DNA from: a plasmid
NCBI RefSeq assembly: GCF_056712565.1
Contig: NZ_JBWXXM010000004.1
Direction: 5' to 3' (one strand)
Length of the DNA stretch: 64,000 nucleotides
The notes beneath the pieces are model-generated. The model saw only the letters and a list, made by a program, of their open reading frames with translations, had not been told where the DNA came from and searched no databases. Positions 4,936 through 44,432 of this stretch are shown in pieces. The position numbers were made by a program, and so were the translations under genes. Every line of letters starts with the position of its first letter. The first letter of the stretch is position 1.

Positions 4936-5043
4936 GATCCCATTTCAGGCCAGTAATGACGCGGCTTACAGCGATCCGGGATCTTCTTTGGATCTTCCTA
5001 GGTTCTCTTTAGGATCTGTTTATTGGATCTATGCTGTGGATAA
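4936..5043. promoter_or_regulatory. origin-associated GATC cluster (6 Dam sites) and DnaA box
   Basis: GATC at 4936, 4973, 4980, 4991, 5013, 5026; TGTGGATAAG at 5035-5044 is the reverse complement of DnaA box TTATCCACA. Confidence 0.65.
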
Positions 5044-38694: not shown

Positions 38695-39887
38695 GTGACC
38701 TGGGACGATCACAAGAAGAATTTTGCTCGCCTGGCGCGAGATGGTGGTTACACCATCGCACAATATGCCGCCGAGTTTAATCTCAACCCAAACACCGCAC
38801 GTCGTTATCTCCGTGCATTCAAAGAAGACACCGGAACAGCGGACAGCCGTAAGCCAAATAAGCCTGTCAGAAAACCACTAAAAAGCATGATCATTGATCA
38901 CGCTAATGATCAACGTGCAGGTGATCACATTGTGGCTGAAATGGCTGAAAAACAAAGAGTTAATGCTGTTGTCAGTGCCGCAGTCGAGAACGCGAAGCGC
39001 CAGAATAAGCGCATAAATGATCGTTCTGATGATCATGACGTGATCACCCGCGCCCACCGGACCTTACGTGATCGCCTGGAACGCGACACCCTGGATGATG
39101 ATGGTGAACGCTTTGAATTCGAAGCTGGCGATTACCTGATAGATAACGTTGAAGCGCGGAAGGCCGCGCGCGCTATGTTGCGTCGGTCCGGGGCTGATGT
39201 TCTGGAAACCACTCTTCTGGAAAAGTCTCTCTCTCATCTCCTTATGCTGGAGAACGCCAGGGATACGTGTATTCGCTTGGTTCAGGAAATGCGCGATCAG
39301 CAAAAAGACGATGATGAAGGAACTCCGCCTGAATACCGTATCGCGAGCATGCTAAACAGCTGTTCCGCGCAGATAAGCAGCCTGATCAACACCATTTACA
39401 GCATCCGGAATAACTATCGAAAAGAAAGCCGGGAGGCGGAAAAGCACGCTTTGTCTATGGGGCAAGCTGGCATTGTAAGCTGGCATACGAACGAAAGCGT
39501 GAAAACAACTGGTCAGTGCTGGAGGCAGCTGAATTCATCGAGGCGCATGGAGGGAAAGTACCGCCCCTGATGCTGGAGCAAATCAAAGCCGATCTGCGTG
39601 CTCCTAAGACCAATACCGATGATGAGGAAAGGCAAACAGCCGTCGGTGGCCCTTCTCTTGAAGATCTGGACAAAGTTGCGCGAGAACGGGCCGCCAACCG
39701 CCGCGCCGATGCCGCATTGTGGATTGAGCAGCGTAGGGAAGAAATCGCCGATATCGTTGATACAGGCGGTTATGGAGATGTTGATACTGAAGGTGTATCA
39801 AACGACCCATGGCTGGAACAAGACCTGGACGAAGACGAGGAGGAAGACGAAGAAGTTACCCGCAAGCTATACGGGGATGATGATTAA
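38695..39887 (+). CDS. pacA: PacA small terminase subunit, reading frame interrupted near 39450
   Basis: Frame 1 (38695-39570) and frame 0 (to 39887) join seamlessly if the TTT run at 39450-39452 were TTTT; reconstructed length 397 aa. Confidence 0.7.
38888..39046. other. pac: pac packaging site (4 + 3 TGATCA/G hexamers)
   Basis: TGATCA at 38888, 38895, 38907, 38922 and TGATCG/TGATCA at 39018, 39030, 39041 inside pacA. Confidence 0.75.
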
Positions 39888-41395: not shown

Positions 41396-42247
41396 CTATT
41401 GCGCGCTTTCGGGGTTGTCGTTTACTGGCTGCCCTTTCTTAGTTTTACGGCTGCGCGTAACTGATGCGGCTGATTTGACCTTTTTCTCTTCGCGAGTGAT
41501 GGCAATTTGTTTTTTTACATTTTCAATATCTGCCAGGCGATATATTTTTGCCTGCGGCCAGCGGTCGCAGATGATCGGTTCTATAGAGTCATAAAGGCTA
41601 AATTTTGCTTTCTCGAATTCACCGTTGATGATAATTCCATCACGGAGAGTTTCATCGCAGATAAACACACCACATAGCGGCACATGGTAACTAACTGATT
41701 TACCATCATTGTAGTTAGGGCTACTAGAAATGTAATGGACGCGCAGCATTGTTTCGCTAAAGCCGTGTACGCGCATACGGAATTTTTCATCCTCCGGGTA
41801 CTGCTTCATTAGCTCTTTTGTTGCTTCCAGGTTCTCTATGTATTTCGCACTGTGCTCATTGATCCCTGCGCTTTTCTGGATGCGAATGTCCTTATCAATC
41901 AGATGAATAATGCGGCCAGCGGTCATGTTGACGCTGTTCACAGCTTCTGTCTGATAAGTCGTAACCTTACGCACACCGCGAAGGATGTTAGGTACTGGAT
42001 ATAAAATAGTCTTTGGGATATTGAGGTCTGGGTACTGTTCCAGTTCCCGCGCCATTAAAGTCCATTTATCAATTTCAGCCTGAATGCTGTCAGTTTCTTT
42101 GAACGGCAGAACGACAACCGGGCGTACAGGACGACCGTCGCTGGCGGCATCAACGTGTTGGGCGCGTGCAACAGCTTTTTTTAGAAAGAGATCCCTGAAG
42201 CTGACGAACTCCTGGTACAGTTGTTCGCCGTAGACATAATTTATCAT
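41396..42247 (-). CDS. c1: C1 repressor of lysis
   Basis: 283 aa, recognised sequence; its 17-bp operator motif recurs throughout the window. Confidence 0.9.
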   Translation of the reverse strand: MINYVYGEQLYQEFVSFRDLFLKKAVARAQHVDAASDGRPVRPVVVLPFKETDSIQAEIDKWTLMARELEQYPDLNIPKTILYPVPNILRGVRKVTTYQTEAVNSVNMTAGRIIHLIDKDIRIQKSAGINEHSAKYIENLEATKELMKQYPEDEKFRMRVHGFSETMLRVHYISSSPNYNDGKSVSYHVPLCGVFICDETLRDGIIINGEFEKAKFSLYDSIEPIICDRWPQAKIYRLADIENVKKQIAITREEKKVKSAASVTRSRKTKKGQPVNDNPESAQ

Positions 42248-42341
42248 TGATCCTCCTCCAGAATTGACATGGCCAACAACTCACAGCGGATTACACTGGG
42301 AGTTGTTGGCCACCATTATAGAAGGATCCAACGAAAATAAT

Positions 42342-42567: not shown

Positions 42568-42806
42568 AATTATGCCTCACTGTATTGACAACACAGAGCC
42601 TGAAGCTCTGACCTACTGTTTCACCCATGATCCATGCTGGGGTAATCTAACAACATTGCGCTGTGTGTAAGATGAGCAATGCATAGCTGTAATGCCGTTG
42701 TATAAGGTTTCCCTGTTTGCTCATTTCCTTCTGAGCCGCTCTACAACGCTGAAGACACATTAAATAGTGAATCCAAAGTCGTATTACGAAACGGCGGCAA
42801 AACTAT

Positions 42807-42822
42807 AATTTATTAGAGCAAT
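42807..42822 (-). promoter_or_regulatory. C1-operator-like site
   Basis: AATTTATTAGAGCAAT, reverse complement of the operator consensus. Confidence 0.55.
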
Positions 42823-42888
42823 TGTCAAACAACTATGAAAAACAATCCAGTTTTTGGCTGGTGGAGTGGGATTTTTCTCTCAAAATTT

Positions 42889-42905
42889 ATTGCTCTAATA
42901 ATTCT
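42889..42905 (+). promoter_or_regulatory. C1-operator-like site
   Basis: ATTGCTCTAATAATTCT. Confidence 0.55.
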
Positions 42906-42948
42906 TGATTTTTATGCACAGCTGGACGTAAACTCCTCTTCAGACCTA

Positions 42949-42982
42949 ATAACTTCGTATAGCATACATTATACGAAGTTAT
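42949..42982. other. loxP: loxP recombination site
   Basis: ATAACTTCGTATA-GCATACAT-TATACGAAGTTAT, exact 34-bp loxP. Confidence 0.97.
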
Positions 42983-43171
42983 CTTAAGGGTTATTGAACA
43001 TGATCAATTTACCTGTAAATCCATACAGTTCAATACCTTATCAGGTCAAATAGTGATCACTTGATCATTTGATCAAGGTTGCGCTACGTAAAATCTGTGA
43101 AATGTTGGCAGTGTTAGTGCTCCAGATTTCGCGTAGCGCACTTAGCACCACCAATCAATCAGAGGTGAAAA

Positions 43172-43393
43172 ATGGGATATTCAGCTGCTAAAGTGTCCAC
43201 TCATATTGAGCTTGAGAAAAACCGTGGTTACTGGCGGGCAAAAGGGTTTGATCGTGATAGTTGTCAACTGTCATTATCGCGCGGTGAAGAGAAAATAGAA
43301 CGCACGCGCGGTCGCTGGCGTTTCTATGACGAGAACCATAAACAGGTAAAGGCAGAGCCGATCCTGTACACTTTACTTAAAACCATTATCTGA
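43172..43393 (+). CDS. cra: Cra (cre-associated function)
   Basis: 73-aa ORF immediately upstream of cre. Confidence 0.7.
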   Translation: MGYSAAKVSTHIELEKNRGYWRAKGFDRDSCQLSLSRGEEKIERTRGRWRFYDENHKQVKAEPILYTLLKTII

Positions 43394-43400
43394 GTGTTAA

Positions 43401-44432
43401 ATGTCCAATTTACTGACCGTACACCAAAATTTGCCTGCATTACCGGTCGATGCAACGAGTGATGAGGTTCGCAAGAACCTGATGGACATGTTCAGGGATC
43501 GCCAGGCGTTTTCTGAGCATACCTGGAAAATGCTTCTGTCCGTTTGCCGATCGTGGGCGGCATGGTGCAAGTTGAATAACCGGAAATGGTTTCCCGCAGA
43601 ACCTGAAGATGTTCGCGATTATCTTCTATATCTTCAGGCGCGCGGTCTGGCAGTAAAAACTATCCAGCAACATTTGGGCCAGCTAAACATGCTTCATCGT
43701 CGGTCCGGGCTGCCACGACCAAGTGACAGTAATGCTGTTTCACTGGTCATGCGACGGATCCGAAAAGAAAACGTTGATGCCGGTGAACGTGCAAAACAGG
43801 CACTGGCGTTCGAACGCACTGATTTCGACCAGGTTCGTTCACTCATGGAAAATAGCGATCGCTGCCAGGATATACGTAATCTGGCATTTCTGGGGATTGC
43901 TTATAACACCCTATTACGTATAGCCGAAATTGCCAGGATCAGGGTTAAAGATATCTCACGTACTGACGGTGGGAGAATGTTAATCCATATTGGCAGAACG
44001 AAAACGCTGGTTAGCACCGCAGGTGTAGAGAAGGCACTTAGCCTGGGGGTAACTAAACTGGTCGAGCGATGGATTTCTGTCTCTGGTGTGGCTGATGATC
44101 CGAATAACTACTTGTTTTGCCGTGTCAGAAAAAATGGTGTTGCCGCGCCATCTGCCACCAGCCAGCTATCAACTCGCGCCCTGGAAGGGATTTTTGAAGC
44201 AACTCATCGATTGATTTACGGCGCTAAGGATGACTCTGGTCAGAGATACCTGGCCTGGTCTGGACACAGTGCCCGTGTCGGAGCCGCGCGAGATATGGCC
44301 CGCGCCGGAGTTTCAATACCGGAGATCATGCAAGCTGGTGGCTGGACCAACGTAAATATTGTCATGAACTATATCCGTAACCTGGATAGTGAAACGGGGG
44401 CAATGGTGCGCCTGCTGGAAGATGGCGATTAG
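43401..44432 (+). CDS. cre: Cre tyrosine recombinase
   Basis: 343 aa MSNLLTVHQNLPALPVDATSDEVRKNLMDMFRDRQAFSEHTWKMLLSVCRSWAAWCKLNNRKWFPAEPEDVRDYLLYLQARGLAVKTIQQHLGQLNMLHRRSGLPRPSDSNAVSLVMRRIRKENVDAGERAKQALAFERTDFDQVRSLMENSDRCQDIRNLAFLGIAYNTLLRIAEIARIRVKDISRTDGGRMLIHIGRTKTLVSTAGVEKALSLGVTKLVERWISVSGVADDPNNYLFCRVRKNGVAAPSATSQLSTRALEGIFEATHRLIYGAKDDSGQRYLAWSGHSARVGAARDMARAGVSIPEIMQAGGWTNVNIVMNYIRNLDSETGAMVRLLEDGD; next to loxP. Confidence 0.97.
   Translation: MSNLLTVHQNLPALPVDATSDEVRKNLMDMFRDRQAFSEHTWKMLLSVCRSWAAWCKLNNRKWFPAEPEDVRDYLLYLQARGLAVKTIQQHLGQLNMLHRRSGLPRPSDSNAVSLVMRRIRKENVDAGERAKQALAFERTDFDQVRSLMENSDRCQDIRNLAFLGIAYNTLLRIAEIARIRVKDISRTDGGRMLIHIGRTKTLVSTAGVEKALSLGVTKLVERWISVSGVADDPNNYLFCRVRKNGVAAPSATSQLSTRALEGIFEATHRLIYGAKDDSGQRYLAWSGHSARVGAARDMARAGVSIPEIMQAGGWTNVNIVMNYIRNLDSETGAMVRLLEDGD

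Follow-up and report, generated by a model that had tools for sequence, protein, structure and literature searches.

A conserved inverted repeat upstream of cra-cre in P1-type phage-plasmids is part of an apparently undescribed motif family

Upstream of the cra and cre genes of a P1/P7-type phage-plasmid lies a 61-bp dyad with 18-nt arms (16 of 18 positions complementary) and 25 nt between them. Sequence comparison suggests that this dyad belongs to a conserved, apparently undescribed motif family which extends well past P1. The dyad is made of two inverted copies of a motif of approximately 20 nt, GGYRAC-GCTACGTGAAATCTGA, and the arm GCTACGTGAAATCTGA is also found as a single copy in T7-like phages. 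The motif occurs in P1-like phage-plasmids, in the leader of gene 18.5 in T7-like phages, and in Cre/Panto-type modules on plasmids of Pantoea, Klebsiella, Yersinia and E. coli. We tentatively favour, at rather less than even confidence, a reading in which the arm is a previously undescribed cis-regulatory motif (approximately GGYRACGCTACGTGAAATCTGA, often with CCCCTGC nearby) common to otherwise unrelated Enterobacterales mobile elements, and in which the dyad would act as a promoter-dependent switch for Cre-family genes. In transcripts started at an upstream promoter the two copies would pair with each other, which would not happen in those started at the Dam-controlled promoter lying within the dyad.

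Results

The lox-cre region of a P1/P7-type phage-plasmid

The dyad lies within positions 42949-43171 of the window (the whole 64,000-nt plasmid stretch analyzed), which we identified as the lox-cre region of a P1/P7-type phage-plasmid through sequence identity and the feature tables of P1, P7 and X03453. A 651-bp segment (42800-43450) was 97-100% identical to P1, P7, RCS47, SJ46 and phiW39, and for a 481-bp part of the region 717 plasmid records contained close matches. Adding 42965 to a P1 (AF234172) coordinate gives the window coordinate; for the end of the P1 record, 51835 is subtracted instead.

The loxP site (13-8-13, 42949-42982, strandless), which had been called from the sequence alone, proved to be an exact 34/34 match that occurs once in the window, and it is annotated in both X03453 and AF234172. 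It is followed by cra (73 aa, 43172-43393) and cre (encoding the 343-aa recombinase, 43401-44432), both on the plus strand according to the open reading frame list and AF234172, with the order and orientation seen throughout the P1 family. Between loxP and cra, a strandless LexA box (43011-43030, core CTGTAAATCCATACAG at 43013-43028) is annotated in the P1 and P7 records; it fits CTGT-N8-ACAG, is kept in all P1-like lineages and overlaps the minus-strand promoter P2coi (-10 at 43006-43011, -35 at 43028-43033; AF234172 41-68). Closest to cra on the plus strand is a CCAATCAATCA motif followed by the cra Shine-Dalgarno sequence GAGG (43151-43165). In every P1-like lineage this pair stands before the operon's first gene, and in the Salmonella lineage L007 a second copy is found ahead of an inserted gene.

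The P1 cre region (Sternberg, Sauer, Hoess and Abremski, 1986, J Mol Biol 187:197, and its records X03453 and AF234172, the latter from Lobocka et al., 2004) is the same locus: loxP, Dam sites, LexA box, P2coi, pR1 hexamers, cra and cre correspond one-to-one, and the promoters pR1, pR2 and pR3 are P3cre, P2cre and P1cre. Of the elements discussed here, loxP, the Dam sites, the LexA box, P2coi and P3cre are already annotated in the P1 reference; the dyad alone is not.

Promoters reading towards cra and cre

Left of loxP, the plus-strand C1 operator Oc1e (formerly Op99e; ATTGCTCTAATAATTCT) maps to 42889-42905 (AF234172 94724-94740), and AF234172 remarks that it possibly controls cra and cre expression. 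It adjoins the plus-strand promoter P4cre (42905-42934; AF234172 94740-94769), which has a -35 of TTGATT (42905-42910), an 18-nt spacer and a -10 of TAAACT (42929-42934). From an expected start at approximately 42941, predicted P4cre transcripts traverse loxP and the TGATCA sites and continue through the left and right dyad arms. An operator-plus-promoter arrangement resembling Oc1e/P4cre was also found left of lox in the Cronobacter lineage JK004 and in the Klebsiella-type lineages.

The plus-strand promoter P3cre, Sternberg's pR1, has its -10 hexamer TAAAAT at 43089-43094 (AF234172 124-129, X03453 175-180), within the left arm of the dyad. The spacer to its putative -35 TTGATC (43069-43074) is only 14 nt. 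P2cre and P1cre are annotated in AF234172 as lying within cra. A consensus scan returned no canonical sigma-70 promoter, and our literature search found no P1 transcriptome resolved to transcription start sites.

TGATCA sites and Dam sensitivity of pR1

Three strandless TGATCA hexamers (TGATCACT, TGATCATT and TGATCAAG) occupy 43054-43075 and are equivalent to P7 Dam sites 2-4. They start at 43054, 43062 and 43070, in 8-nt phase, and the third overlaps the putative pR1 -35. Random placement of the window's 35 TGATCA sites would give so tight a triplet with P ≈ 0.0012, and the sole other comparable cluster in the window is the pac site (38888-39046). Because a bare GATC triplet of such closeness is unremarkable (P ≈ 0.5), the notable feature is the hexamer context together with the 8-nt phasing. 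The three sites had been reported earlier from the sequence alone; they are real and above chance, but the range given for them (43048-43070) is approximately 5 nt off, and a fourth TGATCA at 43001-43006 (strandless) had been overlooked. The latter is Dam methylation site 1 of the cre region in AF234172 (P1 37-40). The P1 reference has TGACCA in place of one hexamer and three GATC, and the window has four TGATCA, as does P7. Copy number of the 8-nt TGATCAnn unit differs even among close relatives (AP026938 and CP029103 have an 8-nt deletion), and the promoter-proximal hexamer is retained in all P1-like lineages.

The 1986 work of Sternberg and colleagues is said to be the source for pR1-driven cre expression rising in dam-minus hosts. 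Its title refers to regulation by DNA methylation (Sternberg, 1986), AF234172 labels Dam sites 1-3 as lying in the cre regulatory region, and the P7 record has four such sites. Dam control of pR1 is therefore established, having been known since 1986, and is nothing new. As a general statement about cre promoters, the suggested Dam sensitivity goes too far: among the cre promoters only pR1/P3cre overlaps the cluster, the annotated Dam sites lying over its -35. In the window, GATC lies over the -35 TTGATC and the -10 TAAAAT stands at the annotated distance, with the same 14-nt spacer as in P1. Dam-sensitive promoters with GATC in the -35 or -10 are a described class (PMC4921776). The cre region resembles its members IS10 transposase pIN, trpR, sulA and glnS in having GATC over the -35, where methylation can alter promoter use, but differs in its three or four sites, their TGATCA context and the 8-nt phasing.

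The same hexamer is clustered at P1 pac, where cleavage is methylation-dependent (TGATCA/G; Sternberg and Coulby, 1990). However, pac has seven hexamers in two groups flanking the cleavage site, whereas at cre a promoter is accompanied by three strictly 8-nt-phased hexamers, plus one isolated. We therefore rejected a pac-type array for the cre cluster, hexamer identity being all that the two have in common.

The dyad and its conservation in P1-like lineages

The long inverted repeat that the sequence-only reading had placed before cra, at approximately 43080-43142, is real and above chance (0.07 inverted repeats of this quality are expected per 64-kb window), with plus-strand arms at 43080-43097 and 43123-43140. 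The left arm (TGCGCTACGTAAAATCTG), located by inverted-repeat search, conservation and motif census, is the motif GCTACGTGAAATCTG with a G-to-A change, which produces the TAAAAT of pR1. The 25-nt spacer (43098-43122), the sequence of which is particular to the P1 lineage, holds the inferred pR1 start at approximately 43101, so that the dyad covers about -21 to +40 of this promoter. The right arm (CAGATTTCGCGTAGCGCA), the inverted motif copy, is the more conserved of the two (in 12 P1-like sequences, 14 of its 18 columns do not vary), and every cra-cre transcript includes it.

There is no further copy of the arm in the 64-kb window, and a multi-site phage regulon was rejected on this ground. 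The dyad is not a feature in the P1, P7 or X03453 records (the "inverted repeat" features of X03453 are the loxP arms), and it is likewise absent from Rfam and from the searchable literature, where the motif sequence appears in no paper, save presumably for its use as a CRISPRi guide.

Searches with patterns for the LexA box and the right arm, and with Cra homologs, recovered further lineages. The dyad was kept in at least six that are P1-like, among them P1 proper, the Salmonella lineages L007, L054 and L223, the lineage L112, the Cronobacter lineages JK004, L225, L236 and L256, and the Klebsiella-type lineages L253-255, L259 and L260. All share a common order: an operator/P4cre-like promoter, loxP, TGATCA and the LexA box, followed by two or three phased TGATCA, the dyad, CCAATCA(A/T)TC and the Shine-Dalgarno sequence. 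Within P1-like populations the spacer is polymorphic and the arms are nearly invariant. The spacing GCTACG-N43-CGTRGC is the same in every P1-like lineage, and the flanks vary (6-8 nt ahead of the left arm, 9-14 nt after the right arm). Lineages other than P1 itself carry one or two additional genes, with products of 68 aa and 356 aa that have no assigned function, in the interval from the dyad to cra. A palindrome search with GCGCTACG-N30-60-CGTAGCGC, combined with genome and metagenome scans, yielded mostly chance matches.

The dyad in Cre-type modules on other plasmids

On a Pantoea agglomerans plasmid encoding a recombinase 41% identical to Cre, the arms GCGCTACGTGAAATCTG and CAGAATTCACGTA lie exactly 25 nt apart and approximately 30 nt before the recombinase start, in a module without cra. 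On eight Pantoea plasmids the dyad was preceded by a lox-type 13-8-13 site and then two GATC sites 8-12 nt apart, and was followed by the recombinase gene, whose product is 41-44% identical to Cre and whose start lies 25-60 nt after the dyad. The GATC pair upstream of the dyad is thus retained even in Pantoea-type modules. Across 24 dyads the spacer was exactly 25 nt in 23, despite indels in the adjacent segments, and a central (A)CCCCTGC is conserved in spacers outside P1 proper.

Orphan dyads with no recombinase were present on Yersinia pYV, a Klebsiella virulence plasmid, and plasmids of Duffyella and P. ananatis. Klebsiella IncFIB plasmids carry the spacer motif and right arm only, at the 5' end of a different recombinase gene. 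Single copies in the opposite orientation are likewise found where a recombinase gene begins (L272). Of 331 motif matches in complete E. coli genomes, 329 were on plasmids and two on chromosomes, on which ground we rejected a host chromosomal regulon.

Panto/pox, Dre/rox and Vika/vox are Cre-type recombinase/target systems (Karimova et al., 2016, PMC4957104; Jelicic et al., 2023, PMC10250229). The Pantoea modules described here are Panto/pox-type systems, each having a Cre-like gene with a 13-8-13 target close upstream. However, the searches in those two studies were for palindromes with gaps of at most 8 nt, and they mention neither the GATC pair nor the dyad, whose gap is 25 nt.

The motif in T7-like phages

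A query with the dyad matched approximately 57 phage records, mostly Autographiviridae, at the junction of genes 18 and 18.5. Dev2, Pisces and T7 have there a hairpin of the T7 type (AAGGYC...GGYCTT), after which come (G/C)CTACGTG(A/G)A(A/T)TCTGA and then the gene 18.5 Shine-Dalgarno sequence and ATG. An inverted partner lies in codons 2-8 of gene 18.5, and the CTACG-N43-CGTA spacing equals that of the dyad. The single motif, 8-12 nt before the gene 18.5 ribosome-binding site, was found in T7, Dev2, Pisces, JA10 and approximately 12 more phage contigs; in JA10 and some 10 other contigs the motif is intact and the inverted partner has decayed. Predicted folding of the motif region was not significant in T7 (z = +0.59) or JA10 (z = -0.45). 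Erwinia phage VL73 carries a full dyad of the plasmid type.

An exact-16-mer scan of viral contigs returned 78 loci. These comprised 15 unique sequences with the full dyad, 12 with the motif followed by a Shine-Dalgarno sequence and ATG, approximately 10 (about 20 loci) with the motif followed by ACCCCTGC at a different offset, and approximately seven that were chance matches within coding sequence. We regard the non-coding cases as homologous because the upstream extension GGYRAC is conserved among them.

The RNase III site R18.5 lies in the T7 gene 18-18.5 intergenic region, although it is not a feature of the record. The T7 region resembles the plasmid dyads in having CTACGTGAAATCTGA between the R18.5-type hairpin and the gene 18.5 Shine-Dalgarno sequence, with a weak inverted partner at the same N43 distance. 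It differs in that the Shine-Dalgarno sequence plus ATG take the place of the "spacer", the partner lies within coding sequence, folding prediction gives no significant hairpin, and the canonical RNase III hairpin is a separate stem-loop upstream of the motif.

Relation of the dyad to lox sites

On plasmids the dyad consistently adjoins a tyrosine recombinase gene, which raises the possibility of autoregulation by the recombinase: the arms would be back-to-back degenerate lox half-sites, bound without recombination, that repress the recombinase's own promoter. Arms and lox half-sites shared a mean of 6.5 of 13 identities, compared with 3.7 ± 1.6 for shuffled sequences, and reached 9/13 in L273. 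In plasmid F, the Cre-related ResD reportedly acts as both resolvase and repressor. Nevertheless, arms matched the lox arms of their own module (6.52/13) about as well as those of other modules (6.40/13), so pseudo-lox sites co-evolving with the recombinase were rejected. Divergence of the recombinases (41% identity) and of the lox arms is, moreover, not matched in the dyad arms, which stay almost the same, and the motif is found in T7-like phages lacking a tyrosine recombinase and in orphan copies with no recombinase gene. We consider autoregulation improbable.

The least probable of the explanations considered is that the dyad is a recombination accessory sequence, binding an architectural factor that gives Cre/loxP resolution its selectivity, like the PepA/ArgR sites beside cer. 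The dyad does lie approximately 145 bp from the loxP center in most P1-like lineages, and a lox-type site accompanies it in the Pantoea modules. However, the gap between lox and dyad ranged from 71 to 133 nt among modules, which rejects a fixed-geometry accessory site, while the dyad stays near the downstream start codon; the motif is, moreover, present in T7-like phages without any lox site. An ArgR/PepA site at the dyad was rejected as well, since the proposed Arg-box is on the c1 side (P1 94669) and neither PepA nor ArgR made a difference in vitro (PMC2409434).

Predicted folding of cra-cre leaders

The whole dyad folds at -28.1 kcal/mol (z = -4.0). However, the pR1 -10 is inside the left arm and the start, at about 43101, is in the spacer; pR1 mRNA consequently has the right arm only, and folding of the pR1 leader (43100-43180) equaled that of shuffled sequence (z = 0.04). 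The 245-nt P4cre leader gave z = -5.98, and much of its structure consists of DNA palindromes (loxP, the LexA box and TGATCA) that fold whenever transcribed. A structured 5' leader, as proposed from the sequence alone, therefore does not hold for pR1 transcripts and would hold only for the annotated P4cre class, whose predicted read-through into cra would allow the complete hairpin to form; the proposal is thus partly supported.

In P1-like lineages the spacers self-folded no better than shuffled sequences (fractions 0.03-0.8), so selection of the spacer for a hairpin of its own was rejected there. In spacers of the non-P1, Pantoea type there is an additional apical stem, and the resulting helices are long and nearly continuous (z = -4.4 to -6.3). 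A search of Rfam 15 with the window region and the Pantoea, T7, Dev2 and VL73 copies gave no relevant match, and a known RNA family was rejected accordingly.

The stable hairpin possible on both strands also suits an intrinsic terminator, and by symmetry the right arm has a minus-strand -10-like hexamer (CGAAAT, TGAAAT or TGAATT), as a mirrored promoter would. However, the sequence after the dyad reads CTTAGCACC on one strand and AACCTTGAT on the opposite one, with no U-tract on either side, and a terminator scan of 42700-43500 on both strands returned no site; an intrinsic terminator was rejected on these grounds. The -10-like hexamer has no consistent -35 partner across lineages. Readings of the dyad as a mirrored minus-strand promoter, or as sigma-32, sigma-54, sigma-E, CRP, FNR or ops-like elements, were dismissed by eye for want of consistent partner elements across lineages. 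A functionless relic of duplication is at odds with conservation in P1-like, Pantoea, Klebsiella, Yersinia and T7-like elements whose flanks are saturated, which rules out neutrality. Together, the terminator, mirrored promoter and relic explanations are highly unlikely.

The arms are conserved as sequence

Covariation between the arms was not significant: in 12 P1-like sequences 86.1% of cells were paired, compared with 85.5% in shuffled alignments (185/500). For 24 sequences with 23-nt arms, the values were 78.8% and 77.6% (61/500), and the covariation score was 0.146 compared with 0.131 (60/500). RNAalifold found zero compensatory pairs and retained only an invariant 8-bp outer stem. The few positions that toggle (A-U/U-A at columns 19/53, several pair types at columns 5-7) were unpaired about as often. 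The arms are held as sequence, not via compensatory changes.

Such conservation is also what a DNA operator would produce, and we regard this as a possible, if somewhat less probable, explanation than an RNA leader element. The arms would be inverted protein sites, the central CCCCTGC would in most lineages provide a third contact, and a protein lying over -21 to +40 would occlude the pR1 -10 and start and so repress cra-cre, a step to which we give the same limited credence. The dyad has conserved inverted half-sites, a fixed 25-bp spacer (43 bp center to center, approximately four helical turns, in 23 of the 24 dyads) and an overlap with a mapped promoter; single copies occur in either orientation, and those of T7 and JA10 do not fold. 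On the other hand, no candidate protein emerged. Cra has no recognizable DNA-binding fold: it gave no Pfam or NCBIfam match and belongs to phrog_804, which is without assigned function; its AlphaFold model (pLDDT 65) gave no structural match (best Foldseek E-value 1.7), and a profile search reached only 16 relatives and was uninformative. Since the Pantoea-type modules, moreover, retain the dyad without cra, we rejected Cra as a regulator binding the dyad. A host factor is unlikely, the motif being nearly absent from E. coli chromosomes and from the rest of the window, and a host operator just before a T7-like late gene is hard to explain.

Discussion

Our leaning, short of an even chance, is that the dyad acts at the RNA level as a leader element, with the DNA operator a close rival. 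In transcripts that start upstream (from P4cre in P1, which C1 would shut off in lysogens), the two copies would pair into a helix of approximately 22 bp standing some 30 nt before the cra ribosome-binding site. This helix would conceal the sense copy of the motif and present a double-stranded target, for example for RNase III, and may thereby damp or time cra-cre expression. pR1 would use the G-to-A motif variant (TGAAAT to TAAAAT) as its -10 and start within the loop, so that Dam-controlled pR1 transcripts would escape the hairpin and C1-controlled P4cre transcripts would carry it.

Several observations are consistent with an RNA leader element. The motif is always 8-60 nt upstream of a start codon, and the T7-like phages in which it occurs rely on a polymerase of their own for unidirectional transcription, which speaks for the RNA level. 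The strong plasmid bias of the E. coli matches gives no sign of a regulon for a host DNA-binding factor. The dyad yields a 22-28-bp helix in any transcript begun upstream, it persists both in the P1-like lineages and in Cre-type modules of 41-44% identity, and the leaders of pR1 and P4cre differ in predicted structure as described above. Set against these are the covariation values, which do not exceed those of shuffles, and the invariant 8-bp outer stem that is all RNAalifold leaves; the exact 25-nt spacing amid flanks with indels, which is more typical of protein-DNA geometry; the motif regions of T7 and JA10, which lack a significant hairpin; and the single copies in the opposite orientation (L272). 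Conservation of sequence without covariation would be expected of an RNA element in which one arm is a constrained motif, because the other arm must then complement it.

The arms are nearly unchanged across P1, Panto-type modules of approximately 41% identity and the T7 gene 18.5 leader, and a motif held this tightly on elements that share little else implies that something reads it. Some constructs retain the native region upstream of cre, and the dyad is overlooked by tools for mining Cre-like systems. Identifying the reader of the motif, be it RNase III, the ribosome or a DNA-binding protein, would account for the low and timed natural levels of Cre-family resolvases, and would add an unrecognized control element to the late genes of T7-like phages.

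Inverted repeats elsewhere in the window

An imperfect 21-nt inverted repeat was found at 42992–43035, between loxP and the dyad (the 61-bp inverted repeat that precedes cra). Its outer 8 bp (TATTGAAC / GTTCAATA) enclose Dam site 1 and the LexA box, and the right outer copy forms the −35 element of P2coi on the opposite strand. This repeat was not kept in the L007-type lineage of Salmonella P1-like elements. Directly upstream of the start codon of c1 (minus strand, ATG at 42247) lies a perfect 13-nt inverted repeat, TGGCCAACAACTC / GAGTTGTTGGCCA, with an 18-nt loop (42270–42313), which could fold into a hairpin within the leader of c1. A strong inverted repeat, AAAATCCAAGGTGAAATCG / CGATTTCACCTTGAAATTTT, at 285–327 has A and T runs on its flanks and looks like a bidirectional intrinsic terminator.

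Dyads and single arms on other plasmids

Dyads lacking a downstream Cre-like gene were seen in four plasmid loci (L268, L269, L270 and L271, at about 1300–1360 in each). Such orphan dyads are carried by P. ananatis pPaFU01, K. pneumoniae pKpvK54, Duffyella pEM02 and Yersinia pYVa127/90. The pKpvK54 copy is unique in having a spacer of 24 nt; in pEM02 a decayed lox-like site precedes the dyad by 99 nt, and in pYVa127/90 the dyad adjoins the sopA operon. The full dyad was also present at about 80% identity on about 150 small E. coli plasmids, the database matches (H235–H274) covering plasmids of about 31–37 kb. On many other E. coli plasmids, among them O157:H7 plasmids about 37 kb in size, one arm occurs singly as a perfect 22-nt match that falls within the annotated bounds of a tyrosine recombinase gene; the gene starts may have been mis-called, or the motif may be coding there.

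Genes inserted between the dyad and cra

In non-P1 lineages a 356-aa ORF (phrog_7674) lies between the dyad and cra, in some of them accompanied by a 68-aa ORF (phrog_19934); both are of unknown function. Loci with an ORF insertion at this position were L007 (167–1483), L253–L260, the further P1-like lineage L112 (1662–2732) and L251 (2733–3803). The stop codon of the 356-aa ORF overlaps the cra start (ATGA). The motif CCAATCAATCA is present twice at the insertion junction in L007, and this duplication suggests that it marks a recombination or mosaic boundary.

In public records, Cra is labelled “creatininase” in many PGAP-annotated plasmids, an error that has propagated and that presumably derives from the gene symbol. 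Several phage records carry a similarly propagated error, in which Cre is labelled “GST-loxP-cre recombinase fusion protein”. An exact loxP was found at the extreme end of Pseudobutyrivibrio plasmid record NZ_CP043029.1 (82665–82698; match H84), and Lactococcus phage Q33 has a loxP-containing 95% match within its portal gene (17548–17590; H23/H24). Rather than natural lox sites, both are probably scars of engineering or remnants of vectors.

TGATCA clusters and copy number at the cre promoter

Besides the cre promoter, the window has only one TGATCA cluster, at 38888–39046 (sites at 38888, 38895, 38907, 38922, 39030 and 39041), with extra GATC sites nearby at 39019 and 39070. The cluster is the packaging site pac of P1, located within pacA, and it has the TGATCA hexamer in common with the cre promoter cluster. 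Pac and the cre promoter aside, the sole tight GATC cluster was a triplet, CGATCCGGGATCTTCTTTGGATCT, at 4973–4994.

The count of the 8-nt TGATCAnn unit at the cre promoter varies between near-identical P1-like plasmids (window 43054–43061 compared with relative loci L001, L004 and L005). The window has three units, as do P7 and E. fergusonii; the P1 reference has TGACCA plus two units, and two are left in AP026938 and CP029103 after an 8-nt deletion. The number of TGATCAnn units may be a natural tuning knob of this Dam-sensitive promoter.
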